64,000 nucleotides of DNA from Vulcanimicrobiota bacterium (GTDB lineage: Bacteria > Vulcanimicrobiota > Vulcanimicrobiia > Vulcanimicrobiales > Vulcanimicrobiaceae), in the NCBI GenBank assembly GCA_963752825.1, contig CAVVZF010000001.1:930225-994224 (forward strand). Reading direction: 5' to 3'. This document shows, in pieces, positions 39,257-62,520 of the stretch. Position 1 is the first letter of the stretch. Each line of letters opens with the position of its first letter. The position numbers and the translations under genes are program-made. The notes beneath the pieces are model-generated. The model was not told the DNA's origin and searched no databases. It saw only the letters and a program-made list of their open reading frames with translations.

Positions 39257-39335
39257 CCTTCGAGCGTTAGACGAATCAAACCGGGATTGCCTCCGGCCGC
39301 CTCGAAAAAAGTCGAGCTTGGAGGAGGTTCGCACT

Positions 39336-40562
39336 ATGCGCATCGGCACGTTGTTACTTTGCGCCACGCTCTTGGCCGGCTGTTCGAACGCTTCGGGGAC
39401 ACCGGCGCTGCCGGGGAGCTCGGCCGGCACCGCGCCGGCGGCGTCGCGCGCATTCGGGCGGGAAGGACCGCTGTACAGCTTCGATGGCCGCACGAGCGGG
39501 GGCGCACCGATGGCCGGGCTGCTTCTCCACGGCGGCCTGCTCTACGGTACGACGTCGGCGTACGGCAAGGGTTACGGGACGGTCTTCAAGATCGATGCGT
39601 TCGGGAAGCTCCACACGCTGTATTCCTTCACCGGTTATCCGGACGCCGAATACCCGCAAGCCGGCCTGATCTGGTTCAACGGTTCGCTCTACGGAACGAG
39701 CTCCGCGGGCGGTTTGTCCGGCGGCGGAACGATCTTCTCCGTGGCGCCGGACGGCGTCGAGCACGTAGTCCACAGCTTTGGAAAGCGCAGGGACGGTGAT
39801 CTGCCGCTGGCGGGCCTGGTCGACGTCAGCGGCGTGCTGTACGGCACGACCGAGCTCGGCGGCGCACACAACAAGGGAACCGTCTTCGAACTCGACGCAT
39901 CCGGCGAGCGCGTGCTGCACAGCTTCGCAGGCGCTCCGACCGACGGCGGACACCCGACGGCCGCGCTGATCCGTTACAAGGATGCACTGTACGGCACGAC
40001 GCGTGCCGGCGGGCGGATCGCCTCCGGCGGTACCGTGTACAAGATCACGCCGTTCGGAGAGGAGGGCGTGCTACACAGTTTCGGCGTCAACCGCGGCGAC
40101 GGCTCGAATCCCGCCGGACCGCTGGTCGTTGTCAACGGCGAGTTCTTCGGCACGACGCTGCACGGCGGAAGCCACGGCTTCGGCACCGTCTTCGCGATGG
40201 GTCCGTCCGGTTCGGAAGAGGTGCTCCACTCGTTCGCGGCGGGAGCGGACGGCGCGGGTCCGCTCGCCGGTCTGATCGCTGTGGGCGGCGAGCTCTACGG
40301 GACCACCATGAACGGCGGCCTGACCGAGAAAAGATCCGGCGACTGCCTCCTGGGGTCCGGCTCCATCGGCAGCCCGACCTGCGGCACGATCTTCAAGGTC
40401 GACGCGTTCGGGCAAGAACAAGTGGTCTATCGTTTTCACGGCTACGCCGACGGGGCCAATCCGGAGGCCGGTTTGACCGACGTCACCGGCGCTTTGTACG
40501 GCACGACCGCGTGGGGCGGCGCACACGTCGATTTCGGAACCGTCTTTCGCTCGTTGCGATAG
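39336..40562 (+). CDS. GloVer-type tandem-repeat (choice-of-anchor) lipoprotein
   Basis: ATG at 39336 with GGAGGAGG upstream. Lipobox ATLLAGCSN. About seven repeats of LYGTTxxGGxxxxGTVF[KE][IL]xxxGxxxxLHSF of about 45-50 aa each. Confidence 0.8.
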   Translation: MRIGTLLLCATLLAGCSNASGTPALPGSSAGTAPAASRAFGREGPLYSFDGRTSGGAPMAGLLLHGGLLYGTTSAYGKGYGTVFKIDAFGKLHTLYSFTGYPDAEYPQAGLIWFNGSLYGTSSAGGLSGGGTIFSVAPDGVEHVVHSFGKRRDGDLPLAGLVDVSGVLYGTTELGGAHNKGTVFELDASGERVLHSFAGAPTDGGHPTAALIRYKDALYGTTRAGGRIASGGTVYKITPFGEEGVLHSFGVNRGDGSNPAGPLVVVNGEFFGTTLHGGSHGFGTVFAMGPSGSEEVLHSFAAGADGAGPLAGLIAVGGELYGTTMNGGLTEKRSGDCLLGSGSIGSPTCGTIFKVDAFGQEQVVYRFHGYADGANPEAGLTDVTGALYGTTAWGGAHVDFGTVFRSLR

Positions 40563-40645
40563 ATCGAGCCCGCAGCGTGACGAGGGTGTGCAGCGCGGCT
40601 TAGCACGTTCGTAATCGTCGCTTAAGAGTCGCTTGCTAGCATGGC

Positions 40646-41866
40646 ATGCGCATGCTGCGAGCGGAAGACGCCGCCGTTGCGGCGCACGGCGGTGACGATC
40701 GCGCGCTCGCCCGAGTCGCGGACCCGGAGTTGCTCGCGTGCCGCACCGCCGGCGACGTAACGGCATATTTCGAGCGGGCCGGGGGGGCCGGCTACGAAGA
40801 GTCGCTGGTCGCCGGGATCGTCCTTACGTGGTCGGGCGACGCGCCCGGCGCGTATGCGTCGTTGCGTCAAGCCCACGACCGCGCGGCGTCGCAGGGGCGC
40901 TTTGCGTTCGCGGTCGCGGCGCTCGAGCGGCTGGCCCACGAGGCCCTGCTGTTCGGCGACGTCGACGCGGCGCGCGCGACGATCGACGACGCGACGCGTC
41001 TCGCGGCAGCGCACGGTCTGGCGCCGCGGCTGCTGCGATGCCTGATCGCCGCGGCGCGCCTCGCGCTGGATGCCGGCGATGTCGCCGCCGGCGCGCAGCT
41101 GCTCGAGCGTGCGGTAGCGCACGCGCGTCCCGCGGGGATGCTCGCCGCGTGCGCGCCGGTCGGCGCGCAACTCGCGCTGGAAAAGGGCGATCCCGGTGCG
41201 CTCGCGATCTGGACCGGACCGGAAGTCGTCGCCGCGGCGCTGCGTTCGGACGATCCCGAGGTCGCTGCTGCGGCGACGACCGCGCTGCTGACCGCCGCCG
41301 ATAGCATAAAGAATCATCTTCAAGTTCGGCGCGCGCTGCGGCGCGCAATACTGGGGACGGCCAGTCCCTCGCGCAGCCCCGAGTTGTTTTCGATCGCGGC
41401 ACGGTACGGCGATCTCGACGAGGCGCGACTTGCGTCGCGCGCGCTCGCCGCCCTTCCGGCGGCGAATCGCCGCTACCTGCGCGCGCACCGGCTCTTGGCC
41501 CGCGCTTACCTCGCCTTTCGATTCGGTGGACGGACCTCGTGGGCCGATCACGCCAGCGACGCGGCGCGCGCGTTTAATGCGATGGGCTTACGCCGCTGGA
41601 CGAACGAGGCGATGCTGCTGCTCGTGCGCCAGCCGGGCGGCGGCGGACGCCATCCCGCGCAGGGCCGGCCTCCGAACTCGATGTTGACCGAACGCGAGCA
41701 GCAGGTGGCCGACCTGATCCGGCGCGGCGCGCGCAATCGCGAGGTCGCGCTCACGTTGCAAATCAGCGAGCACACGGTGGAGCGTCACGTCAGCTCGATT
41801 CTCGGGCGACTCGGACTCCGATCGCGCTGGCAGATCGCCGACACGCGGAACAAGAACGAAGATTAA
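40646..41866 (+). CDS. LuxR-family transcriptional regulator with an N-terminal helical-repeat domain (no receiver domain)
   Basis: C-terminal HTH LTEREQQVADLIRRGARNREVALTLQISEHTVERHVSSILGRLGL. About 330 aa of Ala/Leu/Arg-rich helical repeats precede it. Confidence 0.8.
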   Translation: MRMLRAEDAAVAAHGGDDRALARVADPELLACRTAGDVTAYFERAGGAGYEESLVAGIVLTWSGDAPGAYASLRQAHDRAASQGRFAFAVAALERLAHEALLFGDVDAARATIDDATRLAAAHGLAPRLLRCLIAAARLALDAGDVAAGAQLLERAVAHARPAGMLAACAPVGAQLALEKGDPGALAIWTGPEVVAAALRSDDPEVAAAATTALLTAADSIKNHLQVRRALRRAILGTASPSRSPELFSIAARYGDLDEARLASRALAALPAANRRYLRAHRLLARAYLAFRFGGRTSWADHASDAARAFNAMGLRRWTNEAMLLLVRQPGGGGRHPAQGRPPNSMLTEREQQVADLIRRGARNREVALTLQISEHTVERHVSSILGRLGLRSRWQIADTRNKNED

Positions 41867-41885
41867 GCGCGGCTGAACTTTCTTA

Positions 41886-41899
41886 GGATTACGTAATTC
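41886..41899. promoter_or_regulatory. Palindromic candidate operator between the LuxR gene and the receptor operon
   Basis: GGATTACGTAATTC. The core ATTACGTAAT (41888-41897) is a perfect 10-bp palindrome in an AT-richer patch about 90 nt upstream of the 41989 start. Confidence 0.35.
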
Positions 41900-41988
41900 T
41901 CTCTGTCGGTACATTAACGGCCGTCCGGAGACCCGGGATGCAGCGCCGGTCCGTCATCGCCTAGCATCGGTTTGAAGAATCGGCCCGT

Positions 41989-44900
41989 ATGCCGGCTCTT
42001 CGTTGCTGCTGGGAGTTGATGTTGGTCGAAAGTCTCCTTCGTCTTCGGAAACTCGTGGCATTAGCCGGCTTTTGCGCTATGGTGTTGCCGCATATCCGGG
42101 CCGGCGCGGAGACCGCGGGCATCCTTTCGGGAACGGTCACGGACGACCGCACGCACCGCCCCGTTGCCGGAGTCGCGGTGGTCGCGAAGTCGCCCAGCGC
42201 GACCTATCGTACCGTCACCGACGCGCAGGGACGGTTTCGTTTCCTGAGCGTACTGCCGGACACGTATTCGATCTCGTTTTCGTATTCCGGCTACGCGCCG
42301 TATTCGACGTCGCTGGTAGTGCTCAACGGCTCGCAGCAGACGGTCAACGTGCCGCTGTCGCACACGCTCAAGACGATCGCCTCGACGCACGCGCGCTCGA
42401 CCGGCAGCGCCTTCCAGCGCGGGATGACGATCGATACGTACACGGTGACCGGCGCGCAGATCGAGACGGTCACGGGCAAGGCCTTCAACGCCAACGAGAA
42501 CGACCTGCTGCGCAGCATCCCCAGCGTCACGATCGACAAGACCGGCACAGTTTCGATCCGCGGCGGCTTCGCGTTCGAGGCAGCGTACGAGTTCGAGGGC
42601 ATCGACTACACGACGCCGTCGGCCAATCTGCAGAACACGCTGCAGAACATCGCCAACTTCAACCTGCTCAACGGGGTCGGCAGCGTGCAGCTGGTTCCCG
42701 GCGGCGGCGACGCGACGCACGGCGACACGGGCACCGGGCTCGTGCTGTTCACGGCCAAGCACGGCACGTATCCCAGCTACTTACACGTCGACGCCGAGTC
42801 GCAGCTGTTTCCGTACCTGCATCAGCTGGGGCTGGAGTGGGGCTGGGCCGATCCGTCGCAGCGGCTCTCCAACTACGCGGGGTTCATCGGGATCCGCAAG
42901 GCCTATCAGTACGGCATTCCGGGCACGGCGGCCAATACGCTGGGCACGCTGGGGACCAACGCCGCGACGCTGGGCAGCACGATCGATCCGAACCTGGTCT
43001 ACTACGCGCCGTCGTTCTTGAAATCGGACGACTTCGTCGACAACCTGATCTACCGTTTCGGCCGCAACGAGAATCAGCGGCTGCAGTTCTTCATTCAGGA
43101 TCAGTCGATCACGCAGACGCTCGACTACGGGGGCTTTCAGTTTCTGCCGTACATCTCGGGGGGCACGACCGCCGGCAAGTGCGCCCCCTACCTCGTGATC
43201 GGGCCCAGCGGTCCGGTCAACTCCGCGACGCAGAACTACGCCTGCGATTCGCTGATCCCGCTCTTTCCGGGCCAGCCCAACACCTACGCCTTCGTCTCCT
43301 CGCCGGATACCCTCAAGAGCCCGTTTCTGGCGTATAAGCTCGAGTACGGCGTGAACCTGGGCACGTCGTCGCTGCTGACGGCGCGCTACTTTCGGACGTA
43401 CACCGAGCAATCGCAGGACATGCCGGCGCAGGGCATCTTTGCCGATCCCTACGGCGGCACGCGCACCGGCGCCCAGGTCGACGTGACGACGCAGATCGGC
43501 AGCAAGAATCTCCTGAAGTACGGCACGATCTACCAGTTCGTCGTTCCCTACGGCAACCGGTACGACTTCACGTCGTACACGGCGTTCACGACGCCGGCCT
43601 ATATCATCACGTATCCGATCACGCATCCGCTGCAGCCGCTGCCGCTGCCCTACACCTACAGCGGGCTGTTGCCCAACAATAATCCGTTCGCCGCCGCGGG
43701 GCTGGAGAAGGACTTCTTGTCGCCGGCGTTTTGCCTCACGCAAGGCATCACCGGCTGCGGCTACTTGAGCGCGTACTTTCCCGGCGGCGTACGCTTTCCG
43801 TTCGAGGAAGACGTGGCGACGGTCGGGCAGCAGCAGTACGGCGCGTACCTGCAGGACACGATCGACATGTCGAGCCGCTGGAAGAGCGAGCTCGGCCTGC
43901 GCTTAGACGGCTACAACTTCCAGATCCCGCAGCAGGCCGGCGCACCGGCATCGATTCCGGCCGTCGAGCACCAGCGGCTGTACGAGCCGCACCTGGATCA
44001 GTCGTACTCGCCCGATCCGCGCGACACGATCCGCGTCGGCTTCGGCCATACGCTGGCGATGCCGCTGCCCAGCCTGCTGGGCGCCGACGTCAGCCGCACG
44101 CCCTACGCGCCCTTCGAGAACATTCCGTCCTACGACAACTCGACCGGGCTGCCTGCGCAGTACTGCGGCCCGCACGCCAATGCGCTCTGCGCCAACTATG
44201 CGGATCAGCTCTACTGGCTGACGCGGGATTACCGCTACGGCAGCTCGACGCTCGAGGCGCCGCTCGTCGGCGCGACGTTTACCAACATCGACCTCTCGTC
44301 GGCGCACGCGTTCCCCGACGGCTCGGCGATGAAGATCACGCCGTTCTACCGGCGCGGCTACAACGTCGTGGAGCAGACGGCGCAGATCCTGGGCTTCAGC
44401 TACCAGACCGGCTCGCCGGTCTTCGGCGACGTCGCGTACTCCAATCTGGGCATCCAGCGCGCGAAAGGCATCGAGGTGCTCTACACTAAGGAAGAGCCGC
44501 TCGGCCTCTCGATGCAGCTGGGCGCAACCTACATCAACCAGTTCAGCAACGAGCCGCCGGGGGCGTTCTTACAGCCGGCGGCGCTGGCGCTGGGCACGAC
44601 GTATCGCTCGCCCGACCTGTCGCCGTTTCAGATGAACGCCGCCTTCAACTACAAGACCAGTCATGGCTGGCGTATCAATCCGGTGCTCTCGTTCAACGTG
44701 GGCTATCCCTACGGGGCCGGATACTACACCGCGGTCTATTGCAACGGCATCCCCGTCATCGTGCCCAGCACGAGCCTGTCGCTGATCTACTCGCAGACGC
44801 CGGGCTACATCGATCCACTCGACCCGGGAACGTGCACCAAGCCGAACATCGCGGCCACGCGCGGCATTCACGAGCCGGACTTGGCGGGGGGCTTCTTGAC

Positions 44901-45204
44901 CACGCCGCGCGTCGACGCCGATCTCACCGTCGAGTACCGGCCGCCCACCAAAGGCGTGCTCGCGCAGTCGGTCTTCGGGTTGCAGGTTCAAAACCTGTTC
45001 AACCAGCTCTACAACGTGCCGATCGTCAACGGCTGCTACGGCGCGCCGGTGACCAGCGGCCTGCAGACCGGCAACGCACCGTGCACCTACTCGACCGCAC
45101 CCTACGCGCCGCCCGACGTCTCGGCGCACAGCTCCTCGCCATATTTGACGTTTCCGAACGAGCCGCCGATCTCGTTCCGCTTCTATTACCACGTGGCGAT
45201 ATGA
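41989..45204 (+). CDS. TonB-dependent-receptor-like outer-membrane protein with an N-terminal carboxypeptidase-regulatory-like domain
   Basis: 1071 aa; an alternative start lies at 42019. GILSGTVTDDRTHRPVAGVAVVAKSPSATYRTVTDAQGRFRFLSVLPDTYSISFSYSGY (CarboxypepD_reg). Plug-like DLLRSIPSVTIDKTGTVSIRGG...FEGIDY. The C-terminal part is long and beta-rich. Confidence 0.8.
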   Translation: MPALRCCWELMLVESLLRLRKLVALAGFCAMVLPHIRAGAETAGILSGTVTDDRTHRPVAGVAVVAKSPSATYRTVTDAQGRFRFLSVLPDTYSISFSYSGYAPYSTSLVVLNGSQQTVNVPLSHTLKTIASTHARSTGSAFQRGMTIDTYTVTGAQIETVTGKAFNANENDLLRSIPSVTIDKTGTVSIRGGFAFEAAYEFEGIDYTTPSANLQNTLQNIANFNLLNGVGSVQLVPGGGDATHGDTGTGLVLFTAKHGTYPSYLHVDAESQLFPYLHQLGLEWGWADPSQRLSNYAGFIGIRKAYQYGIPGTAANTLGTLGTNAATLGSTIDPNLVYYAPSFLKSDDFVDNLIYRFGRNENQRLQFFIQDQSITQTLDYGGFQFLPYISGGTTAGKCAPYLVIGPSGPVNSATQNYACDSLIPLFPGQPNTYAFVSSPDTLKSPFLAYKLEYGVNLGTSSLLTARYFRTYTEQSQDMPAQGIFADPYGGTRTGAQVDVTTQIGSKNLLKYGTIYQFVVPYGNRYDFTSYTAFTTPAYIITYPITHPLQPLPLPYTYSGLLPNNNPFAAAGLEKDFLSPAFCLTQGITGCGYLSAYFPGGVRFPFEEDVATVGQQQYGAYLQDTIDMSSRWKSELGLRLDGYNFQIPQQAGAPASIPAVEHQRLYEPHLDQSYSPDPRDTIRVGFGHTLAMPLPSLLGADVSRTPYAPFENIPSYDNSTGLPAQYCGPHANALCANYADQLYWLTRDYRYGSSTLEAPLVGATFTNIDLSSAHAFPDGSAMKITPFYRRGYNVVEQTAQILGFSYQTGSPVFGDVAYSNLGIQRAKGIEVLYTKEEPLGLSMQLGATYINQFSNEPPGAFLQPAALALGTTYRSPDLSPFQMNAAFNYKTSHGWRINPVLSFNVGYPYGAGYYTAVYCNGIPVIVPSTSLSLIYSQTPGYIDPLDPGTCTKPNIAATRGIHEPDLAGGFLTTPRVDADLTVEYRPPTKGVLAQSVFGLQVQNLFNQLYNVPIVNGCYGAPVTSGLQTGNAPCTYSTAPYAPPDVSAHSSSPYLTFPNEPPISFRFYYHVAI

Positions 45205-46391
45205 AAATTGGTGTTGTATTCGCTTTCATCGGTTGCTGCGCTGCACTGTGCGCCTGCGGGAACGGCGGCGCTTCGGAGCCGCCGGTGACGTCGTTTGATC
45301 CGGCCGCGACGAGCAAGCTGCAGTTCGCGGTGGGCGTCGCGACGATCTCGTCCAAAAACGGCGCGAGCATCGCGTACGGGCTCAACACCGTCGAGACGTT
45401 GCGCCAGAGCAACGGGTTGTCGGGAACGCTCTACAATCAGCCGATGATCATCGGCCCGTCGAGCTTCGACGTGCTGATCTCGACGCAGACCGGCAACGAG
45501 GTGCTGGGAGCCGGCGCGGATCTGGGCACCAACCACATTACCTGGGCGACGCTCAATCAATCGCTCTGGACCGGATCGCCGCGCGGGCCCAAACAATCTA
45601 CCACCGGCGCGTTCGGCTACGGGTTGTGTCCGTGTAACTCGGACTCCGGTCCGGGCGACGGCTTCACGCCGCTGTATCAGGCATACAACCAGCCGATCTA
45701 CGGCAACAACCCGGAGCGGTGGTACGGCGGACCGCCCGCGTTTCCGCAAGGCGGGCCGTCGCTGGTTGCGCTCGGTTGGGAGGGCTACTCGCTGGGCTTC
45801 AGCGACTTCGCGGTGCAGCCGGTGCTGGGGGTCTATCATCTCTACGCGGCGGTGCCGCCGGCGTATGATACGCCGCAGAATCCCACGCCTAGTCCGAATC
45901 CCAACGGAACGCCGACGCCGCCGCCCGGCATCCTCGCCGCGGCCGCGCAGCTCACGAGTCTCTCCGCGCTGCCCGCGTTTGGAACGCCGTCCTTCAAACC
46001 CGATCGCAAGGGCGGCGGCACGATCAGCTTGACGGTGCCCGCCGGAGCGACCGAGGCGATGGCCGTGGTGCGCGCCAACGGCGGCAGCGGCATCTCGGGC
46101 AGCAGCTGCGTGAATGCGCACGCCAACGACGCGTATTACACGATCGTCGCGCATGGGGCTGGGCCGGCGCAGCTGATCCTGGCCGACGATCTCGGGCCGC
46201 TCACGCAATCCGGCAAGCAGACGCCGACGATCTGTTCCAAGGGGGCGTACGAGATCTATGCCGTGGGCGCGGACTACCCGGCGTACGAGGCATCCTATCC
46301 CAAGAACCTCTCGCAGCTGCCCGTGATCAAAGGCCCGAGCGGTCAAGCCGACGTCACGACCTCCGATCTACTCACGGCCGCATATCCGTGA
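45201..46391 (+). CDS. Uncharacterised lipoprotein (operon gene 2)
   Basis: The ATG at 45201 overlaps the upstream stop (ATGA). Lipobox CAALCACGNGG. Has an internal PT-rich linker. No family recognised. Confidence 0.7.
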   Translation: MKIGVVFAFIGCCAALCACGNGGASEPPVTSFDPAATSKLQFAVGVATISSKNGASIAYGLNTVETLRQSNGLSGTLYNQPMIIGPSSFDVLISTQTGNEVLGAGADLGTNHITWATLNQSLWTGSPRGPKQSTTGAFGYGLCPCNSDSGPGDGFTPLYQAYNQPIYGNNPERWYGGPPAFPQGGPSLVALGWEGYSLGFSDFAVQPVLGVYHLYAAVPPAYDTPQNPTPSPNPNGTPTPPPGILAAAAQLTSLSALPAFGTPSFKPDRKGGGTISLTVPAGATEAMAVVRANGGSGISGSSCVNAHANDAYYTIVAHGAGPAQLILADDLGPLTQSGKQTPTICSKGAYEIYAVGADYPAYEASYPKNLSQLPVIKGPSGQADVTTSDLLTAAYP

Positions 46392-48364
46392 CGAACGTTC
46401 GCACGCGAGCGATTCTGACGATTACGGCGCTCGCCGCGACGGCGGCATGCAGCGGCGGCTTCGGCACGCCTAACGGCCCGGTCGTGAACTCTCCGGGGGG
46501 GCCGACGCCGCAACCGCTTCCGCTCGTGAAGGTGGACGTGCACGTGACGATTCCCGGAACGGGGCACGCAAAGGGCGTCCGGCCCGATTACGTCTCACCC
46601 AATACCGAGTCGCTCGTAATCCAGCTCGCGTCTGTGGACGGCCAGGGCGTGAGCGGCGTCAACGCGACGACGATCGAGACGCGCGTACATTCTCACGGCT
46701 GCGCGCCCCAGGGAAGCCAGACCGTCTGCGCGGGAACGGCCCTCGGATCACCGGGCGAGGATGTCTTCTCGCTCACGACCTATGCGGGCCCCAACGCCAC
46801 CGGCGCCGTCTTGTCGGCCGGCACCGTGCAGGCGAAGATCGCGTCCGGCGGCGGCGACGTGCCGATCAACAACCTTACCCTTACCCTCGACGGCGTGATT
46901 GCATCGCTGCGTTTGTCGCTGTCACCCAAAGCGGGCGAGCGCGGCAAGCCGGTGACGGCTGCGGTTTCGCTAACGGCGTTCGACGCCACAGGCGCGCAGA
47001 TCGTCGGTGCTAGTCCTTTTCTTACGCCGATCGCACTAACGGTTCAGGGCGACACGGTGCACGCGTTTCGCCTGCACGCGGGCCGGGAATCGGGCGCTTC
47101 GCTGTCGATCGCGAAGCCGACGTCGGACATCACGCTCAGGTACGACGGCAACCGCCAGGCGTCGCCCGTCACAATCGCCGCAAGCGTATCAGGCTCGATC
47201 GGTGCCAGCGCACACTTTGCGCTGCACGGCAAGGTACCGCCGCCCCCGGTCGGCACGTTCTATGCGTTGAATTTCGGGGCCGGCGACGGGAAAGCAGCGT
47301 CGGTCACCGAGTACGACGGCAAGGCGAAGGGCAACGCCGCTCCTGAGCTCACGCTGTCGCTGAACTCCAAGCTTTATGCTCGGACGATCGCCGTCGATTC
47401 CAGCGGGAATCTGTACGTGGGCTATCTTGATAACAGCCTCGGTTATGATCCCGGAACCGGCGCGCCCGATGCCGGCAACGAGATTGCAATCTACGGACCC
47501 GGTGCCAGCGGAAAGAGCCCGCCGAACGCCGTGCTCAAGGCCGACTCAAAGACGAACACCGCGCTCTTTCCGGTCTTCATCACCTTCGATCCGTCCGGCC
47601 GGCTCGTAACGTACGGCGGTACCAGCGTCGACGGCAATACGGGCGACGCAGTGCTGACGTATCCGGCCGGAAGTTCCGGGCCTGCCGCGCCCGAGTACGC
47701 TTTCGATTTCACAACGAGCCTTGACTACGCGGCCGCCCTCCCGAGCGGGCTCGCCATTGACTCCGCCAACAATTTCTACGTCAACGGTGGGTTGCACACG
47801 CCTCTTGGTAACCAGTATGGATTGTACGTTGCGGCGGCTGCCGATATCGGCAATCCGCAAACCGCGCCCGCACGCACGATTCCATGGGATTCGACCACGC
47901 AACTCGAGCCCGGCTTTACCACGAACGTGAGCCTGGACCGAGCGGGTGAGATCTTCATCGGCACGTGGGTGAAAGAGGGCAGCGGCGGGAGTGCGACCTG
48001 TCAAGCGCGCGTCAACGTCTATGCGGCGGGCGCCGGCGGAGGCATCACCGACGTTCCGCCGCTGCGGATTTTGACGCTCGGCGACGCGTCGACGCGTGGC
48101 AACGACTGCTACGCATCGCGCAATCCACTGCTGGCGTATTTCCCGACGATTCAGATCTACGGATCGTCACTCTTCATCACCGACGATTTCAATAACGCGA
48201 TCGACGGCTACTCCGCTAGCGCACACGGAAGGGTAAAGCCGATGCTTCGCATCGTGGGCTCGGCGACGCAGCTGAATGCCCCGACTGCGCCCGTAGTCAC
48301 TTCGTTTTCCGGGCCGGCCAAGGCCGGCGCGGTTGAGACCACTGATTCACTCGACCATCGATAG
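46388..48364 (+). CDS. Uncharacterised lipoprotein with Ig-like N-terminal region and a propeller-like C-terminal region (operon gene 3)
   Basis: The GTG overlaps the upstream stop (GTGA). Lipobox ALAATAACSGG. C-terminal blade motifs DSSGNLYVGY, DSANNFYVNGG, RAGEIFIGTW, SSLFITDDFNNAIDGY. Confidence 0.7.
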   Translation: MTNVRTRAILTITALAATAACSGGFGTPNGPVVNSPGGPTPQPLPLVKVDVHVTIPGTGHAKGVRPDYVSPNTESLVIQLASVDGQGVSGVNATTIETRVHSHGCAPQGSQTVCAGTALGSPGEDVFSLTTYAGPNATGAVLSAGTVQAKIASGGGDVPINNLTLTLDGVIASLRLSLSPKAGERGKPVTAAVSLTAFDATGAQIVGASPFLTPIALTVQGDTVHAFRLHAGRESGASLSIAKPTSDITLRYDGNRQASPVTIAASVSGSIGASAHFALHGKVPPPPVGTFYALNFGAGDGKAASVTEYDGKAKGNAAPELTLSLNSKLYARTIAVDSSGNLYVGYLDNSLGYDPGTGAPDAGNEIAIYGPGASGKSPPNAVLKADSKTNTALFPVFITFDPSGRLVTYGGTSVDGNTGDAVLTYPAGSSGPAAPEYAFDFTTSLDYAAALPSGLAIDSANNFYVNGGLHTPLGNQYGLYVAAAADIGNPQTAPARTIPWDSTTQLEPGFTTNVSLDRAGEIFIGTWVKEGSGGSATCQARVNVYAAGAGGGITDVPPLRILTLGDASTRGNDCYASRNPLLAYFPTIQIYGSSLFITDDFNNAIDGYSASAHGRVKPMLRIVGSATQLNAPTAPVVTSFSGPAKAGAVETTDSLDHR

Positions 48365-48379
48365 AAGGAACATCGACGT

Positions 48380-49828
48380 ATGAATAAGACTCTCGTGGCT
48401 CTAGCCTTATCGGCGGCCACCGCGGCGCTAGCGCTTAGCGCGTGTAACGGAAGCTCCGGGGCGGGCTCTGGAGTAGCGAGTATACCGAACGCGCCCACTG
48501 GATCGCATCGCGTTCGTGCCAACGACAATGGTCCACAAGATCTCCACGCCGGGGGCGCGACCTTCCCGGCGTACGCTTACAACCTCGGCGATCAGCCGGC
48601 GGGCCTCTATAGCTCGCCTCAGGCAACACCCGGCCCCGGCTCTATTCTCGCGAGCGCCGGTACCGCGGGCGTCGTCTACTACTGCTTGACCGGCAGCGGC
48701 TTCGGTCGCAAACAGTTCACCGGTCAATCGATCACCGCGACCGTCGCCTGCGCGCCGCTCGGCGCATCGCCCACAGGCTTCGGCGGCCGGCGAGATCCGC
48801 TCGACTTCAACGGAAGCGACGTCGCTCTCGCGTCGACCGAGTGCTGCGGGTCGGGCACGCCCTACGCCACCAACCGAGCTTCCACTTTGGGACAACCGTT
48901 CGAGCTCCCGACGATCGGCGGCCCGATCGTCTTCCCATACAACAACAACGGATTCACGGGAATCAAGAGCGGCAAGTTCTTGCGCCTCTCGACCTGGACG
49001 TACTGCGCCATTTCCAACGGCACGATCAGCGACTGGAACGATGGAGCGATCACGGCCGATAACGGCGGCAAGTCGGTTACCGGTGGGTCGAGCGAGACGC
49101 TTCACTACTACTTCCGTTCTGACGGCAGCGGGACGAGCTACCTCTTTACGAATAAGCTCAACACCGCGTGCAACGTCTCGTTCGGCCCGCCATACAACAA
49201 GGCGCCCTACAGCAGTCCGAGCCGCAGCGCAGCTTGGGGGTTCGGCGTAAACCAGACCTGGCCGGGACCCGGCTCGTCAGGCGACCCCAACTCGCGGTTT
49301 ATCGGTGAGAGCGGCAATCCCGGCGTCGTCGCAGGAATCCAAGGCGACGAGTGGGGCACCGGCTACGCCGAAGGCGCCTGGGTGAAGTCGGCGCCTGCGG
49401 GCACCTACGGCACTCTCGAACAGTCGAGCGTGCTCGACACCAGCAACACGATTTTCGTGAGTCCAACCAACAAGACCGCTGTCGCTGGTGCGCTTGCGAA
49501 CGCCAAAACGATCACCTACGGGATGGGCAGCGACGGCATTACCCTCGGCTCGAGCACGCCGTGGTGCCAGCTCTATATCGACCCGAGCCAGTTCGTCACG
49601 CCGCCGAAGGGCACGTATCCAATCGTCGGCTTGAGCTACTGGCTCTTCTACGGGAAAAACCTGGGCGTCCATGTATTGCAAAAGCAGAAGCTGATCAAAT
49701 TCGTCGTATCGAAGACGGCCAATGGGCTACTTGGTCCGCTAGAATACTCACCGCTCAACTACACCGTTCACCAGGCGGTTCTCCACGCACTCCGCGGCAA
49801 GGCATCTCAGCCGGCTTGCCTCCAGTAG
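48380..49828 (+). CDS. PstS-family (type 2 periplasmic binding protein) phosphate-binding-like lipoprotein (operon gene 4)
   Basis: Lipobox ALALSACNG. PstS-like blocks: GGATFPAYAY, CLTGSGFGRKQF, DFNGSDVAL, GTISDWNDGAITADNGG, HYYFRSDGSGTSYLFTNKL. Confidence 0.75.
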   Translation: MNKTLVALALSAATAALALSACNGSSGAGSGVASIPNAPTGSHRVRANDNGPQDLHAGGATFPAYAYNLGDQPAGLYSSPQATPGPGSILASAGTAGVVYYCLTGSGFGRKQFTGQSITATVACAPLGASPTGFGGRRDPLDFNGSDVALASTECCGSGTPYATNRASTLGQPFELPTIGGPIVFPYNNNGFTGIKSGKFLRLSTWTYCAISNGTISDWNDGAITADNGGKSVTGGSSETLHYYFRSDGSGTSYLFTNKLNTACNVSFGPPYNKAPYSSPSRSAAWGFGVNQTWPGPGSSGDPNSRFIGESGNPGVVAGIQGDEWGTGYAEGAWVKSAPAGTYGTLEQSSVLDTSNTIFVSPTNKTAVAGALANAKTITYGMGSDGITLGSSTPWCQLYIDPSQFVTPPKGTYPIVGLSYWLFYGKNLGVHVLQKQKLIKFVVSKTANGLLGPLEYSPLNYTVHQAVLHALRGKASQPACLQ

Positions 49829-49844
49829 CATACCCTGACAATGC

Positions 49845-49873
49845 GTACGCGCGCCGCGATGCGGCGCGCGTAC
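49845..49873 (+). promoter_or_regulatory. Strong intercistronic stem-loop after the PstS-like gene
   Basis: Perfect 13-bp GC-rich stem gtacgcgcgccgc / gcggcgcgcgtac with a 3-nt loop (gat). No U-tract follows, and it ends 11 nt before the next start codon. Confidence 0.6.
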
Positions 49874-49884
49874 CTCTTCACCGT

Positions 49885-50640
49885 ATGAATTGTTTTGCAC
49901 GATTTGTTCTCCTCGCTTCCAGCTGCGTATTTGCAATTACGGGGTGCGGCGGGTCGAGTTCGTCGTCGAGCGCAACGCCGCCGCAGGCCGCTTTCGCGCG
50001 CGTGCGCTTCGCCGACGGGGCGCCTTCGCTGGAAACGCTCATCAACGGCGTGCCGCAAGATATCGGGCTGGCCTACCTGCAGCTCGATCATTCGACCGTA
50101 ATGTCGCTCTTTGTATACGGCGCGTTCTCGCCGTTCATGCAAGTAGCGCCGGGGACGCATTCGCTGACGGCGCGCGACGAGCTGGGGTATGCGGTTGGTC
50201 CGCTCAAAGCCCCGTCGCTGAGCCCGGGAATGTACTACACGCTAATCGTCGTCGGCGCGTATCCCACGTACAGCGTGCTGGCGTTTCCAGAGCCGACAAG
50301 GCCGAGCGGCGCCGCGATGTCATTCTACGAGGCATCTCCGGCCGTTCCATCGTCGGACTTCGGAAGCTTCAGCGCGTCGATGCACGCGAATTTCAAGAAG
50401 CTCGGCAGCGCGCAGCTCGGGAACGTCGCCACGGTTCCGCTCGGGAACAGCGTGTCAAACCTCGGGGGATATGTCGGGAACGCGAGCGCGCCGCTCGGCA
50501 CGCTGACATTGCGCCAGATCAATCCATTCGATAAACGCAACGTGTTGCCGTTTCACCGCGCGGCGCGGCTGTCGCTCTTCCTGTTCGATCCGAAGTCCGG
50601 CAGCACGAGCGGACCCCTCTTCGGGAGCCTCGATCGATGA
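49885..50640 (+). CDS. DUF4397-like lipoprotein (operon gene 5)
   Basis: ATG at 49885 within ORF 49351..50640. Lipobox VFAITGCGG. ARVRFADGAPSLETLINGVP...MQVAPGTHSLTARDE...MYYTLIVVGAYP resembles DUF4397. Confidence 0.7.
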   Translation: MNCFARFVLLASSCVFAITGCGGSSSSSSATPPQAAFARVRFADGAPSLETLINGVPQDIGLAYLQLDHSTVMSLFVYGAFSPFMQVAPGTHSLTARDELGYAVGPLKAPSLSPGMYYTLIVVGAYPTYSVLAFPEPTRPSGAAMSFYEASPAVPSSDFGSFSASMHANFKKLGSAQLGNVATVPLGNSVSNLGGYVGNASAPLGTLTLRQINPFDKRNVLPFHRAARLSLFLFDPKSGSTSGPLFGSLDR

Positions 50641-51716
50641 AAATTTCCTCGTGCTTCGCGATACTCGTCGCGCTGGCCGGCGCCGTGGCGGTGATCTCCG
50701 GCTGCGGGACGACGGGTCCGGCGCCGATCGGCGTCTCGAATCCGCCGCAGCCCACCGCTACGCCCGCCGCGCGGTGGCTCTACGTCGATCACAACGGGAC
50801 GTTCTTCGCGTACGCGCTTCCGCTGACGGCGCAGTCGAAGCCGGTGCGTACGCTCCAAGAATGGCCGGGCCTTGGTCTTGCGCCGCAGATCGCCGTGGAT
50901 CCGTACGGTGAGGTCGCGCTCGCGAGCCCGACGACGATCCGGATCTTTCATCCTCCGATCGAATCGTTCGCGCGCTCGCACGCCAAACTCAGCATTCCGC
51001 TCACGCCGGCGATCACCGAGATCGGGCTCTCCGGCGCCGACCTCGTCGACATCGAGTACGATCCCAACCAAAACCTGTGGCTGCTCAACAACCTTGGCGG
51101 CGAGGTATCCGAGCTTCAGGCGCCCCTGACGAAGACGATGGTGGCCTCCGTCATTATCATTTTCGGCGCTCCAGGCTCGAAGACGGCAGGCTTCTCGACC
51201 CTGATCCAGGCGCGCTTCGACGTCAACGCCGCGTTGTACGTCTATGCGAGTTCGTCGCAGCGCGCTCGCGTCTTCAAGACGGGCCTTCCTTACGCCAAAC
51301 CGCCCAGCTCGATCGGTTTGAACCTGGCGCAGGCCGACTTCGTCGATTCGAGCCAGTGGCCGCCGACGGCGCCGCAGCAGCCGTCGCTGCTTCTGGGGCA
51401 GTACTTCGGGCCGCTGCACTCGCCGCATCCGGGTTCGCCGCCGTCGCCGCCGGTCGATGTGATGAGCCAGTTCCAAGAACCGCTCAACCAGCAGAACCGC
51501 GGACTCTTTCCGGACGAGTTCGCCAACACGATCGTCGGAGCGCTGATAGCGGATCCTCCGCGCGGGGTCTTCTATACGCTGGACGCGGTCGACGGCCGCC
51601 TCGACGTCTACGGGTTGCCGATGCGCAGCCATGCGAAGCCGGCGATCTCCCTGCGCTGCCTCGCGCAGGGGGGAAGCTGCAGCCAGAAGATCGAGCACCT
51701 CTTCTTGGCGCCTTAA
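50637..51716 (+). CDS. Uncharacterised propeller-like lipoprotein (operon gene 6)
   Basis: ATGA overlap with the upstream stop. Lipobox VAVISGCGT. Motifs IAVDPYGEVALASP, EYDPNQNLWLLNN. Confidence 0.7.
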   Translation: MKISSCFAILVALAGAVAVISGCGTTGPAPIGVSNPPQPTATPAARWLYVDHNGTFFAYALPLTAQSKPVRTLQEWPGLGLAPQIAVDPYGEVALASPTTIRIFHPPIESFARSHAKLSIPLTPAITEIGLSGADLVDIEYDPNQNLWLLNNLGGEVSELQAPLTKTMVASVIIIFGAPGSKTAGFSTLIQARFDVNAALYVYASSSQRARVFKTGLPYAKPPSSIGLNLAQADFVDSSQWPPTAPQQPSLLLGQYFGPLHSPHPGSPPSPPVDVMSQFQEPLNQQNRGLFPDEFANTIVGALIADPPRGVFYTLDAVDGRLDVYGLPMRSHAKPAISLRCLAQGGSCSQKIEHLFLAP

Positions 51717-51752: not shown

Positions 51753-52748
51753 GTGCGCGCGATGACGCTCGAGCGGCCGGCCGCGATCGAAACCGATCCG
51801 CTACGGCTAACGAACAAACCGAAACCGGCGCCAGCGCCGGGTGAAATTCTCGTGCGCGTCAGCGCGTGCGGCGTCTGCCGGACGGACCTGCACGTCGCCG
51901 AGGGCGACCTCGCGCCCAAGCACCCAGGCATCGTCCCCGGCCACGAGATCGTGGGCGCCGTCGCGCTGGCCGGTCCCGGGAGCGAGCGATTCGCCGCCGG
52001 AACGCGCGTCGGCATCGCGTGGCTCCGCTACACCGACGGCACGTGCGACTACTGCCGCAGCGGACGCGAGAATCTCTGTCCCAACGCGCTCTTCACCGGC
52101 TGGGATCGCGACGGCGGCTACGCCGAGTACGCGGTGGTGCGGGAAGACTTTGCCTACCGGCTGCCCGACGCGATAGACGACGAGCACGCCGCGCCGCTGC
52201 TGTGCGCCGGCATCATCGGCTTTCGCGCCATCAAGCGCGCCGGGGTCGTGCCCAGCGCCACCGTGGGGCTCTACGGGTTCGGCGGCTCGGCCCATCTGGC
52301 GCTCCAGGTGCTGCGGCACTGGAACTGCCGTGTGTTCGTCATGAGCCGCGGCGGCATCCACCGCGACCTCGCGCGGGAGCTCGGAGCGGATTGGATCGGT
52401 GACGCGTCGGATGCGCCGCCGGCAAAGCTCGACGCCGCGATCCTGTTCGCGCCTGCCGGCGACCTCGTGCCGCCCATCTTGGCGGCGCTGCGCCGCGGCG
52501 GCGTGCTGGCGATCGCGGGAATCCATCTCACGCAGATCCCGCCCCTCGACTACGACACGCTCTTCGACGAGCGCGAGATCCGCAGCGTCACCGCCAACAC
52601 GCGCGCGGACGGCGAGGAGTTCCTCGCTATCGCCGGCGCGATACCGATCGAATCTTCGACGGTGGGAATGCGCTTGGAAGACGCGAACCGCGCACTGAAC
52701 ATGCTGAAACACGACGAGCTGCGCGGCGCCGCCGTGCTGCACGTATGA
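51753..52748 (+). CDS. Zinc-dependent alcohol dehydrogenase (MDR family)
   Basis: CGVCRTDLHVAEGD, GHEIVG, structural-Zn cluster CDYCRSGRENLC, and nucleotide-binding GLYGFGGSAH. The start is either the GTG at 51753 or the ATG at 51762. Confidence 0.85.
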   Translation: MRAMTLERPAAIETDPLRLTNKPKPAPAPGEILVRVSACGVCRTDLHVAEGDLAPKHPGIVPGHEIVGAVALAGPGSERFAAGTRVGIAWLRYTDGTCDYCRSGRENLCPNALFTGWDRDGGYAEYAVVREDFAYRLPDAIDDEHAAPLLCAGIIGFRAIKRAGVVPSATVGLYGFGGSAHLALQVLRHWNCRVFVMSRGGIHRDLARELGADWIGDASDAPPAKLDAAILFAPAGDLVPPILAALRRGGVLAIAGIHLTQIPPLDYDTLFDEREIRSVTANTRADGEEFLAIAGAIPIESSTVGMRLEDANRALNMLKHDELRGAAVLHV

Positions 52749-53425
52749 ATCGCATCGTTTGCGCGGCCGCGATCGTTGGGCTAGCCGGATGCAGCGGGGC
52801 GTTCGGCGAGCGCGCGCGCGAAGATTTTCATGCGACGATCGAGGCGGGCGCGGGCGCGACGGTGCACGTCGACAACATCGCCGGCAGCGTCAACGTCGAT
52901 GCATGGGCAAAGCCGAGCGTCGACGTTCGCGCGACGAAGTACGGCAACGACGCGGCGGAGCTGCGTTCGGTGAAGATCGACGTACGCGGCGAGGGCAAGG
53001 ACGTCTTCGTCAAGACGAATTACACGGGGCTGCGGCACGGCACCGTGCGTTACCGGATCACGGTTCCGGCCGACGCGTCCCTGGATATCTCGAACGTCGC
53101 CGGGGCAGTGAACCTCGCGGGCACCAGCGCCGACGTCACGGTGGAGACGCAGGCCGGGGCGATCACCGCGGACGTCGGGCGAGTCTCGGGAAACCGCTCG
53201 ATCGATCTGCGCGCTACGACCGGCGCCGTCGAGGTCTCGATCGCTCCGAACAGCGATGCCTCGATCGAGGCGTCGAGCACCGTCGGGGACATCACGAGCC
53301 GCATTCCGGGCGTCGCGGCGAGCCGCGAAAACCTCGTCGGCGCCCGCGCGAGCGGGCTGATCGGATCGGGGAGCGGCCGGGTCCGCGTCGGCACCACGAC
53401 CGGCGCAATCGCCCTGCGATTCTAA
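52745..53425 (+). CDS. DUF4097-like beta-strand-repeat lipoprotein
   Basis: ATGA overlap with the ADH gene's stop. Lipobox IVGLAGCSG. Repeated V-x-N-[IV]-AG-[SA]-VN and TTGA[IV] units. Confidence 0.65.
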   Translation: MNRIVCAAAIVGLAGCSGAFGERAREDFHATIEAGAGATVHVDNIAGSVNVDAWAKPSVDVRATKYGNDAAELRSVKIDVRGEGKDVFVKTNYTGLRHGTVRYRITVPADASLDISNVAGAVNLAGTSADVTVETQAGAITADVGRVSGNRSIDLRATTGAVEVSIAPNSDASIEASSTVGDITSRIPGVAASRENLVGARASGLIGSGSGRVRVGTTTGAIALRF

Positions 53426-54529: not shown

Positions 54530-54742
54530 GGCCACCAAAAAGGCCAAAAAAATTGACGGGGATGCAGGATTCCGGCACCTTGGACCAAAGGACAGACCTC
54601 CCTAGGTCTGGACGGAGTTTTGCGGATGCCCCAACCACTGGAGTGCACCTCGGTTCAATTACCGGACGTCCGCTTGACCGCCGCGGCGGAAGCTCTCGAC
54701 GGCCTAGCACTTCCCTAACTACAAGTAAGGAGAATTCTCCCT

Positions 54743-55810: not shown

Positions 55811-55848
55811 CAGTAAACCAAGAAACTCGATAGCGAGTATGCAAACGG

Positions 55849-55882: not shown

Positions 55883-55913
55883 CTCGGACGTCATATGAAG
55901 GAGCATTAACAAC

Positions 55914-56981: not shown

Positions 56982-58334
56982 TTAGTCGTCGCCGATGATC
57001 GATTGCGGCTTGCCGCGCCGGCGCGGCAGGCCGCGATCGTGTTCGATCCAGTACTCGGCCGGCTTCGACCCGCCGAACCTTTTGAATTTGCGCGGCTTCT
57101 GGCCGTAGTCGAATGCGTCGCCGGCAGGATCGCGGGCGCGCGCGTCTGCGGCCGCCAGCGGCGCGAGTCCAAAGTTGTCCTCGATGAACTTGAGCACGCT
57201 CGCGGTCTCGTATTGAACGTGCGTCACGTAGCCCTGTTTGGCGTACGGTGAGATCATGACCAGCGGCACGCGAAAGCCGAGCCCGAAGGTATCCGCGTGG
57301 ATGGGCTTGATCGGGTCGAACAGCCCGCCCCAGTCGTCCCACATCACGAAGATCGCCGTCGAGTCCCAGAACTGACTCCGGCCCACCGCGTTCACGAGCG
57401 AGGCGATCCACGCCGGGCCGCCGGCGGCGTCGAGCCCGGGATGGTCGGAGTTCTCGTAAGTCGGCGTGATCCACGTCACGTTGGCGAGCGTTCCGTTTGC
57501 GATGTCGGTGAGGAACTGCGAGGGCGGGTTGATGACGTCGGCCTTCCAGTCGGGGCCGCGGTAGATGGTTTTGTTGGCCTGATACGACGACCAGAGGCCG
57601 CCGTCGCCGTAGATGGCGCCGGCGTAGAAGCGCCAGGTCACGCCCGCCGCGTCGGCCTCGCTGCCAATCGTGGCTATGTCGAAGCACGTCACGATGCTCC
57701 GACCGTACGTCCGCTGCGCGGTCCAGGTCGGGATCTTGTCCTGCCTTCCACCCTCGCATCCCCAGTCGGTCGGCGGCGCGTCGGCGGCCCCGTCCGCATA
57801 GGCCGCGATCGCGTACTGGTGCGAGATGAAGCTGCCGTCGAAGTTCGAGGAGAACGTCCTGTCGGCGAGCACGTACTGCTTCGCCATCTTCCAGTACGGG
57901 TCGACCTCTTTCTCGGGGACGTACGCGTACGCGAAATTCTGTGGGGCTCCGAAGCCGTGAAGCTCGTTGTTCCAGCCGTCCATCTTGCACTTGGTTCCGC
58001 GCAGGTTTCCGGTTCCGTCACACGCGGCAAAGAACGCCGGCGAGAAATGATCGATGTCCCACGAAGTGGCGAGGTCGGTAGCGTGCAGCTCGATCTTGTT
58101 CCCCTTGGTGTCGAAGCCGTAGCTGCGCGTCTTCGCGCCGGGATAGCCCATGAAGAGATTGTTGAACGAGCGGTTCTCTTGGATGATGAAGACCACGTGC
58201 GAAATCGGTGTCGTGCTCGCGCGCATCGCGTGCCGGAGCGCCGGCGCGGCTGGGTCAACCGAGGGCGCTCCGCCCGAGCCGCAGCCGGCTAGCGCCAGCG
58301 CGAACGACGCCAAGACCGCGCGTTGTAAAGCCAT
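56982..58334 (-). CDS. Phosphoesterase-family (PLC/AcpA, PF04185-like) lipoprotein, copy 1
   Basis: Lipobox FALALAGCGSGG. ISHVVFIIQENRSFNNLFMGYPGA, DIDHFSPAFFAACDGTG, SFISHQYAIAA, WITPTYENSDHPG, VMWDDWGGLFD, GFRVPLVMISPYAK. Confidence 0.8.
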   Translation of the reverse strand: MALQRAVLASFALALAGCGSGGAPSVDPAAPALRHAMRASTTPISHVVFIIQENRSFNNLFMGYPGAKTRSYGFDTKGNKIELHATDLATSWDIDHFSPAFFAACDGTGNLRGTKCKMDGWNNELHGFGAPQNFAYAYVPEKEVDPYWKMAKQYVLADRTFSSNFDGSFISHQYAIAAYADGAADAPPTDWGCEGGRQDKIPTWTAQRTYGRSIVTCFDIATIGSEADAAGVTWRFYAGAIYGDGGLWSSYQANKTIYRGPDWKADVINPPSQFLTDIANGTLANVTWITPTYENSDHPGLDAAGGPAWIASLVNAVGRSQFWDSTAIFVMWDDWGGLFDPIKPIHADTFGLGFRVPLVMISPYAKQGYVTHVQYETASVLKFIEDNFGLAPLAAADARARDPAGDAFDYGQKPRKFKRFGGSKPAEYWIEHDRGLPRRRGKPQSIIGDD

Positions 58335-58417
58335 CTCCGCTCAATTGGGCGCACCGGGTCGCAACCCTCCGTTGGCCGGGAGGAAGCGCCTCGCGCCGCG
58401 GCATAGGCTGTTGCGCT

Positions 58418-62493: not shown

Positions 62494-62520
62494 GCGGTTT
62501 ACGTCAGGCGTCGCCGCGCG

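Follow-up and report, generated by a model that had tools for sequence, protein, structure and literature searches.

A conserved gene cluster of Eremiobacterota for an outer-membrane barrel, lipoproteins and a PstS-like binder, possibly serving phosphate acquisition

Described outer-membrane systems and the present locus

The SusCD loci, or utilisomes, of Bacteroidota are among the closest described systems to the locus considered here, a group of seven genes, named G0 to G6 and all on the + strand, at 40646-51716 of a 64-kb stretch of DNA from a Vulcanimicrobiota bacterium (contig CAVVZF010000001.1), the whole of which is called the window throughout. As in SusCD loci, the gene of a partner lipoprotein comes immediately after that of a predicted TonB-dependent transporter (TBDT), which bears a carboxypeptidase-regulatory-like domain at its N-terminus; further lipoprotein genes and a dedicated regulator gene are present, and multiple paralogous loci occur. 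The original prediction, drawn from the letters of the window, had recognised a LuxR-linked operon of a receptor and five lipoproteins and had proposed capture and uptake of phosphate or phosphorylated polymers. In the analysis reported here the locus is read, tentatively and at somewhat less than even probability, as one that would encode a regulated outer-membrane receptor-lipoprotein complex for the acquisition of phosphate or organophosphate.

The differences from SusCD loci are several. G2 is not a SusD/RagB protein and its C-terminus is an FN3-like sandwich, the regulator is of the LuxR/GerE type, the phylum is a different one, and G1 is too divergent to match a solved SusC. Furthermore, in comparison with a polysaccharide utilisation locus (PUL), glycoside hydrolases and other carbohydrate-active enzymes (CAZymes) are absent and a PstS-fold binder is present instead. 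Judged on sequence, it is the lack of a SusD partner and of CAZymes that would leave the locus outside the SusCD/PUL group. In Flavobacterium, depletion of inorganic phosphate induces the PusCD loci, and phosphatase genes are co-localised with them (10.1101/719427). A TBDT with an adjacent, substrate-capturing lipoprotein other than SusD is found in BtuB-BtuG and in TbpA-TbpB/HpuAB, which the present locus resembles in this respect, and propeller lipoproteins such as BtuG can cap TBDTs (PMC10404256). The present locus, however, encodes five lipoproteins rather than one or two, with no sequence homology to BtuG or TbpB and with a surface exposure that is putative.

Phosphate-binding proteins of the PstS and DING types provide a further comparison. 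G4 shares their PBP_like_2 fold and full ligand set, with disulfide-forming Cys residues as in DING proteins, and it is lipid-anchored, as is PstS of Gram-positives and mycobacteria. On the other hand, it is approximately 160 amino acids (aa) longer than E. coli PstS, scores below the equivalog cut-off, has no adjacent pstCAB genes and lies inside a TBDT-lipoprotein operon; its score and operon context would set it apart from PstS sensu stricto. In Pseudomonas, the phosphate-specific porins OprP and OprO are encoded close to pst genes, OprP being a 16-strand trimer with neither a plug nor energy coupling. The present locus would share with them the genetic linkage of a channel in the outer membrane to a phosphate binder of high affinity, whereas G1 has a predicted TBDT fold. 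In Oar of Myxococcus, which is implicated in protein secretion, a CarboxypepD_reg domain is followed by a TBDT barrel, and it is not known to be accompanied by a fixed lipoprotein set or a PstS-like gene. G1 has the same domain order and a similar size of about 1,060 aa, whereas no specific sequence relationship between the two was detected by Pfam or PDB profile.

Searches of the literature on TonB, the outer membrane or lipoproteins in Eremiobacterota, on DUF4397 and on TBDTs together with PstS returned no account of such a system, which agrees, as far as the searchable literature reaches, with the earlier remark that the combination was not recognised as a described one. Eremiobacterota, a soil phylum, is plentiful in peat, in polar deserts and in soils that are acidic and poor in nutrients, and to our knowledge almost nothing is known of its envelope and nutrient uptake. 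A typical diderm envelope, outer membrane included, is seen in the only member of the phylum in culture (PMC9758169).

Recurrence of the cluster and its proteins

One genome per GTDB species was scanned with an alignment of G4 as the query, giving 283 relatives, and the gene content of the 77 loci kept was established by tblastn with all seven proteins. All six structural genes (G1 to G6) are present in 40 of the 77, in the order of the window in 38 and with G0 upstream as well in 34, the remaining loci being mostly short contigs that end inside the cluster. Homologues are annotated as Candidatus Eremiobacterota (equal to Vulcanimicrobiota or WPS-2), from the genera Cybelea and Tumulicola and the family Baltobacteraceae, and the cluster has so far been found only in this phylum. 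Some cluster contigs carry other taxon labels (L006, L009, L063 and others: Acidiferrales, Verrucomicrobiia, Nitrosotalea, Binatia, Dormibacteraeota) with genes 50-80% identical to Eremiobacterota orthologues; these labels are probably the result of mis-binning. Coordinates and identities are collected in Table 1.

Table 1. Features of the locus and its flanks, with positions counted from the first base of the window and, where available, the identity of homologues to the window protein
Feature	Position	Strand	Evidence	Identity
GloVer (Gloeo_Verruco) tandem-repeat lipoprotein, possible accessory	39318..40562	+	TIGR03803 E=5e-72, 7 repeats, lipobox	
G0, LuxR/GerE-family regulator, 406 aa	40646..41866	+	Pfam GerE	
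TTA-N8-TAA box with palindrome ATTACGTAAT, candidate operator	41883..41897	.	19-locus alignment	
Putative promoter-region blocks TTAA(C) (41914-41918), GGATGC (41936-41941) and TAGCAT (41962-41967, -10-like)	41914..41967	+	invariant columns, 19 loci	
Leader stem-loop GAAGAATCGGC-CCGTAT-GCCGGCTCTTC	41974..42001	+	stem in orthologous leaders	
G1, outer-membrane barrel with predicted TBDT fold	42022..45204	+	Pfam, AlphaFold2 and Foldseek	75-93% (highest)
G2, lipoprotein of no known family, constant G1 partner	45201..46391	+	ATGA overlap, constant synteny	66-83%
G3, lipoprotein with N-module and NHL/SBBP-type beta-propeller	46388..48364	+	Pfam, phmmer	53-67%
G4, PstS-fold lipoprotein, full phosphate ligand set, six invariant Cys	48380..49828	+	PBP_like_2, TIGR00975	50-65%
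Intercistronic hairpin, 13-bp perfect stem, dG about -27 kcal/mol	49845..49873	+	folding and orthologue comparison	
G5, DUF4397 lipoprotein	49885..50640	+	Pfam DUF4397 E=2.5e-7, conserved lipobox	45-70%
G6, lipoprotein without known family, possibly propeller-like	50637..51716	+	ATGA overlap with G5	54-85%
Zn-dependent alcohol dehydrogenase (ADH)	51753..52748	+	Pfam/NCBIfam; downstream of G6 in 16 loci	
DUF4097/LiaG-like lipoprotein	52745..53425	+	Pfam/NCBIfam; downstream of G6 in 14 loci	
AcpA/phospholipase-C-type phosphoesterase	58208..59764	+	PF04185 E=9e-46; TIGR03397 E=1e-35	

Order conservation alone is weak evidence, because the flanking synteny is also fairly conserved; the case for a functional unit is made by permutation, whole duplication, deep paralogues and a minimal pair. 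The order is permuted to G3-G4-G5-G6-G1-G2 at a different chromosomal site in two loci (L003 and L043), and in two others (L005 and L061) G4 has been relocated in front of G1. Two full copies, the permuted L003 and the complete canonical L084, belong to a single genome. In distant clusters, where G1 is 40-54% identical, a G1-like gene, an overlapping G2-like gene, a large lipoprotein with the G3 N-module, DUF4397, PBP_like_2 and GerE are found together again, and the PBP_like_2 genes of L082, L085 and L086 are transcribed divergently from the G1-like operon. L083 (G1 47% identical) has the other parts and no PBP_like_2 gene in the stretch recovered. L087 contains a bare G1'-G2' pair, from which it follows that G1 and G2 together would be the smallest unit. 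The receptor, PstS-like and DUF4397 genes do co-occur repeatedly, a point that the original prediction had put forward as a check, with the gene order kept in 38 species-level genomes, and the recurrence of the same parts in permuted, duplicated and distant paralogous clusters marks a conserved unit rather than a chance one.

The three divergently arranged clusters L082, L085 and L086 (G1 40-41% identical) all come from one sample, ERZ27247748, each with a GloVer lipoprotein gene and either one PBP_like_2 gene or two on the divergent side. This layout suggests a multi-member, PUL-like family of loci.

The layout of the cluster in the window is as first described. All seven open reading frames (ORFs) are found in the ORF listing with the same-strand positions given earlier, and the sequence confirms an ATGA overlap of G1/G2 at 45201, a GTGA overlap of G2/G3 at 46388, a 15-nt gap between G3 and G4, a 56-nt gap between G4 and G5 that holds the perfect hairpin, and an ATGA overlap of G5/G6 at 50637. 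The four-base start/stop overlaps are kept in 19 of 36 loci at G1/G2, in 23 of 37 at G2/G3 and in 45 of 46 at G5/G6. From the conservation of the overlaps and the hairpin we infer that the genes are coupled, which would set subunit ratios. The codon-position GC of G0 to G6 is gene-like, with GC at third codon positions (GC3) of 0.77-0.89 in a genome of 65% GC, and the long antisense ORFs overlapping them show the inverse pattern expected of shadow frames. Base composition is uniform across the window and the gene content of the locus is envelope-related, for which reasons a defence system or a mobile element was set aside as a reading. Each of G2 to G6 starts with a signal peptide and lipobox, the lipobox being present in every orthologue, and none of these lipoproteins has Asp at position +2. 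The domain calls made earlier were reproduced by Pfam/NCBIfam, namely the GerE helix-turn-helix (HTH) in G0, CarboxypepD_reg with a weak barrel match in G1, PBP_like_2/PstS in G4 and DUF4397 in G5.

G4 has the phosphate-binding fold that had been attributed to it, PBP_like_2, with the complete PstS ligand set. It matches Pfam PBP_like_2 (PF12849) above the cut-off (E=9e-11) and TIGR00975 (PstS) with E=7e-22, yet at 77.8 bits against an equivalog cut-off of 205, and a profile of its orthologues matches PstS and DING proteins of the PDB with a best E of 1.7e-12. The phosphate ligands of E. coli PstS, which we take to be numbered T10, F11, S38, D56, R135, S139, G140 and T141, are found again in short motifs of G4: GGATFP aligns to the T10/F11 site, TGSG to S38, GSD to D56, and RSDSSGTT to R135/D137/S139-T141 (FRSDSSGTT against RRADGSGTS in E. 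coli). GGATFP, TGSG and GSD were also matched to the corresponding motifs of M. tuberculosis PstS3. In addition, F62, S106, R246 and D248 are invariant in 14 orthologues, with the remaining ligand positions kept in consensus motifs. With these ligands the bound group would be orthophosphate or a terminal phosphate, and they give no direct support to the phosphorylated polymers first proposed.

No pstCAB permease or ATPase genes lie beside G4-type genes in the more than 80 loci annotated, solitary paralogues included. The solitary paralogues occupy a conserved housekeeping site, with glycine-cleavage and cysteine dioxygenase (CDO) genes on one side and NUDIX-ScpA-ScpB on the other (L001, L002, L008, L009, L037, L068, L069). 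In GCA_019240525.1 the same CDO/NUDIX-ScpAB site carries the whole permuted second cluster (L003), and a solitary G4 gene may be the leftover of a lost second cluster copy.

G1 is composed of a signal peptide, a CarboxypepD_reg domain, a candidate TonB box, a putative, divergent plug and a predicted barrel of about 22 strands. Its type I signal ends in A-x-A|ETAG. CarboxypepD_reg is matched with E=6e-17, and the generic TonB_dep_Rec_b-barrel model PF00593, the only barrel model matched, with 26.5 bits against a cut-off of 27, rising to 30-33 bits in distant family members. The AlphaFold2 (AF2) model, built from a 40-sequence alignment, has a mean predicted local distance difference test (pLDDT) score of 63 and a predicted template modelling score (pTM) of 0.65, with most barrel strands at 70-90. 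In a Foldseek search of this model against the PDB the top 50 matches are all TBDTs, including FrpB, PiuA, Fiu, PfeA, FpvA, FepA, the SusC-like ButC and TbpA (best E=6e-18, template modelling score about 0.5 on the target, approximately 10% identity). The earlier claim of a receptor is sustained to this extent, and G1, as modelled, is a TBDT at the level of fold only. The putative plug segment is the most conserved part of G1 (mean majority fraction 0.84, 31% of columns invariant) and carries near-invariant motifs resembling plug hallmarks, LLRSIPSV..G.VSIRGG, EGIDY and GSVQL.PGGGDATHG..GTGL. A strand of the form [ST]L[KR]TIA[ST], TLKTIAST in the window, lies in the linker between CarboxypepD_reg and the plug and is kept down to 40% identity; by eye, a candidate TonB box can be seen in it. 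Conservation in the loops predicted to be extracellular (0.60-0.81) equals that in the strands (0.53-0.75), as would be expected if the loops touch fixed partners. Among the genes of the window, G1 has the top GC3 (0.89). Genes for TonB, ExbBD, Pst or Pho were not found within the 64 kb; whole genomes were not searched.

G2 has no match in Pfam, NCBIfam or, by sequence profile, the PDB, and SusD/RagB is not among its Pfam matches; its 472 homologues are all unnamed or labelled hypothetical. AF2 is confident only for a C-terminal FN3/Ig-like sandwich (aa 255-396), where Foldseek returns generic FN3 matches, and gives no confident fold for aa 20-254, from a shallow alignment with members at least 69% identical. 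Together these results uphold the earlier remark that a SusD-like partner is missing. G2 lies directly 3' of G1 in every cluster, the distant ones (28-46% identity) and the bare G1'-G2' pair included.

The two lipoproteins first described as being of no recognisable family fare differently. The description holds for G2, whereas the C-terminal half of G3 is an NHL/SBBP-type propeller: Pfam gives weak SBBP/NHL repeat matches, and of the 592 relatives found in an exhaustive phmmer search, NHL/SBBP/SGL-type propeller proteins are matched by aa 290-650. The N-terminal module of G3 (aa 10-280) is common to many lipoproteins without a Pfam match, including those of the approximately 725-aa genes in distant clusters. 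Profiles of G3 and of G5 found no relative among PDB sequences, and DUF4397 genes occur likewise in the distant clusters. G6 has no Pfam match and no PDB relative by sequence profile; its conserved lipobox agrees with the lipoprotein status given to it earlier, and the propeller-like character also suggested meets with weak similarity to an NHL propeller (hhalign probability 33%). Profile-profile comparison showed no relationship among G2, G3 and G6.

The regulator, the G0-G1 spacer and the hairpin after G4

The HTH of G0 (aa 346-399; PF00196, E=9e-13) is C-terminal and is the only part with PDB matches, to GerE, NarL, VraR and DevR. The N-terminal 340 aa have no match in Pfam, NCBIfam or the PDB, and hence no autoinducer-binding, receiver or MalT-type NTPase module was detected. 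G0 is upstream and on the same strand in 34 of the 38 loci of canonical order, small GerE genes also adjoin distant paralogous clusters, and the protein would control the G1 promoter.

The spacer between G0 and G1 was studied in an alignment of 19 orthologous intergenic regions (41867-42024 in the window), and is unusually conserved over these 19 species. In the TTA-N8-TAA box, the alignment shows little or no variation at T17/T18/A19 and T28/A29/A30. The box is AT-rich in a genome of 65% GC and is a plausible operator for the GerE-type G0. The blocks downstream of it would form the promoter. A sigma-70 scan found no canonical promoter match, and the terminator count was at background level. 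The hexamer TAGCAT also occurs 4 nt 5' of the G0 ATG (cttgcTAGCATggcATG; window 40634-40648); if it is a -10 element there, the G0 transcript would have little or no leader.

The leader of G1 carries a stem that recurs in all 16 leaders of orthologues compared and shows compensatory changes in part. RNAalifold returned a weak 4-bp consensus of -4.1 kcal/mol with weak covariation, and an Rfam search of 39-53 kb matched no family. The start of G1 had originally been placed at ATG 41989, a codon that is not conserved and sits in the leader hairpin. The most likely start is TTG 42022, because it is invariant in 19 loci and is preceded by an invariant Shine-Dalgarno sequence, GGGAG, at 42011-42015, a few bases 5'.

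The hairpin after G4 is the sole one of its kind in the window. It is present in 37 distinct orthologous loci at -20 to -38 kcal/mol, with the core GCGCGCCGC/GCGGCGCGC kept and a covarying outer stem; in L029, L030 and L044 the stem sequence is wholly replaced. A C/T-rich tail often follows on its 3' side. The element reads as a locus-specific terminator-like attenuator or 3' stabiliser that would uncouple the dosage of G1-G4 from that of G5-G6. There would be a parallel in the operons of ABC transporters, in which the genes of binding proteins are followed by hairpins. A repetitive extragenic palindromic (REP) element was considered and rejected, given the single occurrence in 64 kb.

Interpretation, rival explanations and flanking genes

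If the locus serves phosphate or organophosphate acquisition, G1 would be a highly divergent plugged barrel of the TBDT type that moves phosphate across the outer membrane, and G2 its obligate lipoprotein partner, standing at the place of SusD in Bacteroidota loci and unrelated to it. G3, with a stalk and an NHL propeller, G5 and G6 may be accessory outer-membrane lipoproteins for substrate capture, processing or scaffolding, and G4 a lipid-anchored binder of orthophosphate or of a terminal phosphate group. Nearby phosphoesterases of the AcpA/phospholipase C type would free phosphate from organic phosphorus, which G4 would trap and G1 import. The lipoproteins would in this case stand on the outside of the cell, like those of a utilisome. 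In an alternative topology they would face the periplasm, where G4 would take phosphate from G1 and pass it to an inner-membrane importer. G0 would act on the conserved promoter upstream of G1, the start/stop overlaps would set the ratios G1:G2:G3 and G5:G6, and the hairpin after G4 that of G1-G4 to G5-G6. Complex formation, topology, energy coupling, substrate and regulation are what we infer in this reading, beside the gene content, conservation, folds, ligand residues and RNA and DNA elements that were observed.

A more specific version, which is doubtful, holds that a PstS-fold protein was recruited to a TBDT-type transporter, as a surface capture lid or a periplasmic acceptor, in a six-protein 'phosphate utilisome' (G1 to G6) known so far from Eremiobacterota alone, with one to several paralogous copies in a genome. 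If true, this would be a hybrid of ABC-type binding-protein logic and TBDT/surface-lipoprotein logic, built with three lipoprotein families without known relatives: G2, the N-module of G3 and G6. The block is among the most conserved envelope loci of Eremiobacterota, with a receptor approximately 80% identical across species and two full copies in some genomes, and capture of phosphate or organophosphate, if it takes place, would account for competition for phosphorus in nutrient-poor soils. The principle of a TBDT plus lipoproteins, best known in Bacteroidota, would then reach a new phylum with different parts, including a PstS-type binder. The three uncharacterised lipoprotein families gain a testable context, for which the cultured relative Vulcanimicrobium alpinus offers an experimental route.

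Several observations weigh against phosphate acquisition. A profile of 16 G1 orthologues found no solved TBDT among PDB sequences, SusC included. The match of G1 to Pfam Plug covers profile positions 11-105 of 107 but stays below threshold (E=0.033; 15 bits, cut-off 23.9), and over this region the AF2 model has low confidence, with values below 50. The conservation of G1, approximately 80%, and its top GC3 would also suit a constitutive structural role. Furthermore, PstS shuts free phosphate in fully, so that polymer binding is not implied, and given the solitary paralogue G4 could be the plain PstS of the phylum, serving a PstCAB encoded elsewhere. The conservation of gene order is largely one among fairly close relatives that share flanking synteny as well. 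The PF04185 phosphoesterase recurs no more than 10 kb from the cluster in 20 loci, rearranged ones included, with homologues that fall into three or more paralogue groups; as long as this is not weighed against the background copy number per genome, it counts as supportive of phosphate acquisition, not as decisive.

Uptake of a substrate without phosphorus, such as a metal chelate, a peptide or a glycan, is an unlikely alternative in which G1-G2 and the propeller and beta-sandwich lipoproteins would do the work and G4 would be a bystander PstS paralogue or a binder of another oxyanion. It would be in keeping with the G1-G2 pairs that have no PBP_like_2 neighbour (the upstream pair of L087; L083), with the solitary G4 paralogues elsewhere and with a G4 score far under the PstS equivalog cut-off. 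Yet G1-type genes have PBP_like_2 alongside them in clusters of canonical order, in permuted ones and in distant ones with divergent orientation, and the phosphate ligands of G4 are all invariant, including the Asp that selects phosphate. Phosphoesterases recur nearby, too, around a block in which Pfam found no CAZyme (glycoside hydrolase, lyase or esterase), peptidase or siderophore genes among G0 to G6, and no CAZyme in the immediate flanks.

It is likewise unlikely that the genes encode a constitutive structural or export complex, in which the lipoproteins would be coat, tether or cargo of G1, and G1 itself a major protein of the outer membrane, present in abundance, or a secretion channel like Oar. 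G1 is indeed the most conserved gene (75-93% against 50-67% for G3/G4), with the top GC3 and conserved loops, its architecture of CarboxypepD_reg and a TBDT barrel is one that Myxococcus Oar has as well, and most of the genomes sampled carry the cluster, some of them twice. It is hard, however, to reconcile a coat or cargo with a solute-binding fold whose ligand site is intact, a dedicated ligand-type regulator gene and several divergent paralogous clusters per community look more like substrate-specific uptake loci than like housekeeping machinery, and only the generic PF00593 was matched among barrel models. Very improbable, in turn, is the absence of any functional unit, with unrelated envelope genes kept in one order by inherited synteny. 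The flanks (a 213-aa lipoprotein, GloVer, ADH and DUF4097) are syntenic as well in 14-20 loci, but the four-base overlaps are kept in up to 45 of 46 loci, the whole set has been relocated in permuted order (L003) and duplicated entire (L003 and L084), and paralogues of 40% identity have the same domain set in a different orientation, by which this explanation is largely refuted.

The PF04185 gene of the window lies 6.5 kb downstream of the cluster. Such genes stand near the cluster in four or more configurations: in other loci they are found right after G6 (L058, L060), after ADH (L010) or upstream of the permuted L003, and L084 has two tandem same-strand copies downstream (L084 19407-21191) and an inorganic pyrophosphatase gene upstream of the cluster. 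GloVer homologues lie directly upstream of G0 in 19 loci, and L082, L085 and L086, distant clusters with approximately 40% G1 identity, have them in divergent orientation beside the G1-like gene. The gap from G6 to ADH is only 36 nt, and membership of ADH and DUF4097 in the block is uncertain.

Farther downstream in the window, tandem lipoprotein genes of 348, 355 and 353 aa without a family lie at 53483-56975, and two 405-aa lipoprotein genes with near-identical N-termini and a weak subtilase (S8) match at 61149-63738; the region with these gene sets is a lipoprotein-rich island. On the other side of the cluster, a STAND-type regulator of 823 aa with HTH_31, NB-ARC/AAA and TPR parts is encoded at 10085-12556. 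A gene of the beta-lactamase family at 13512 lies near it, and a second one (22066) and a penicillin amidase gene (24194) follow further downstream.

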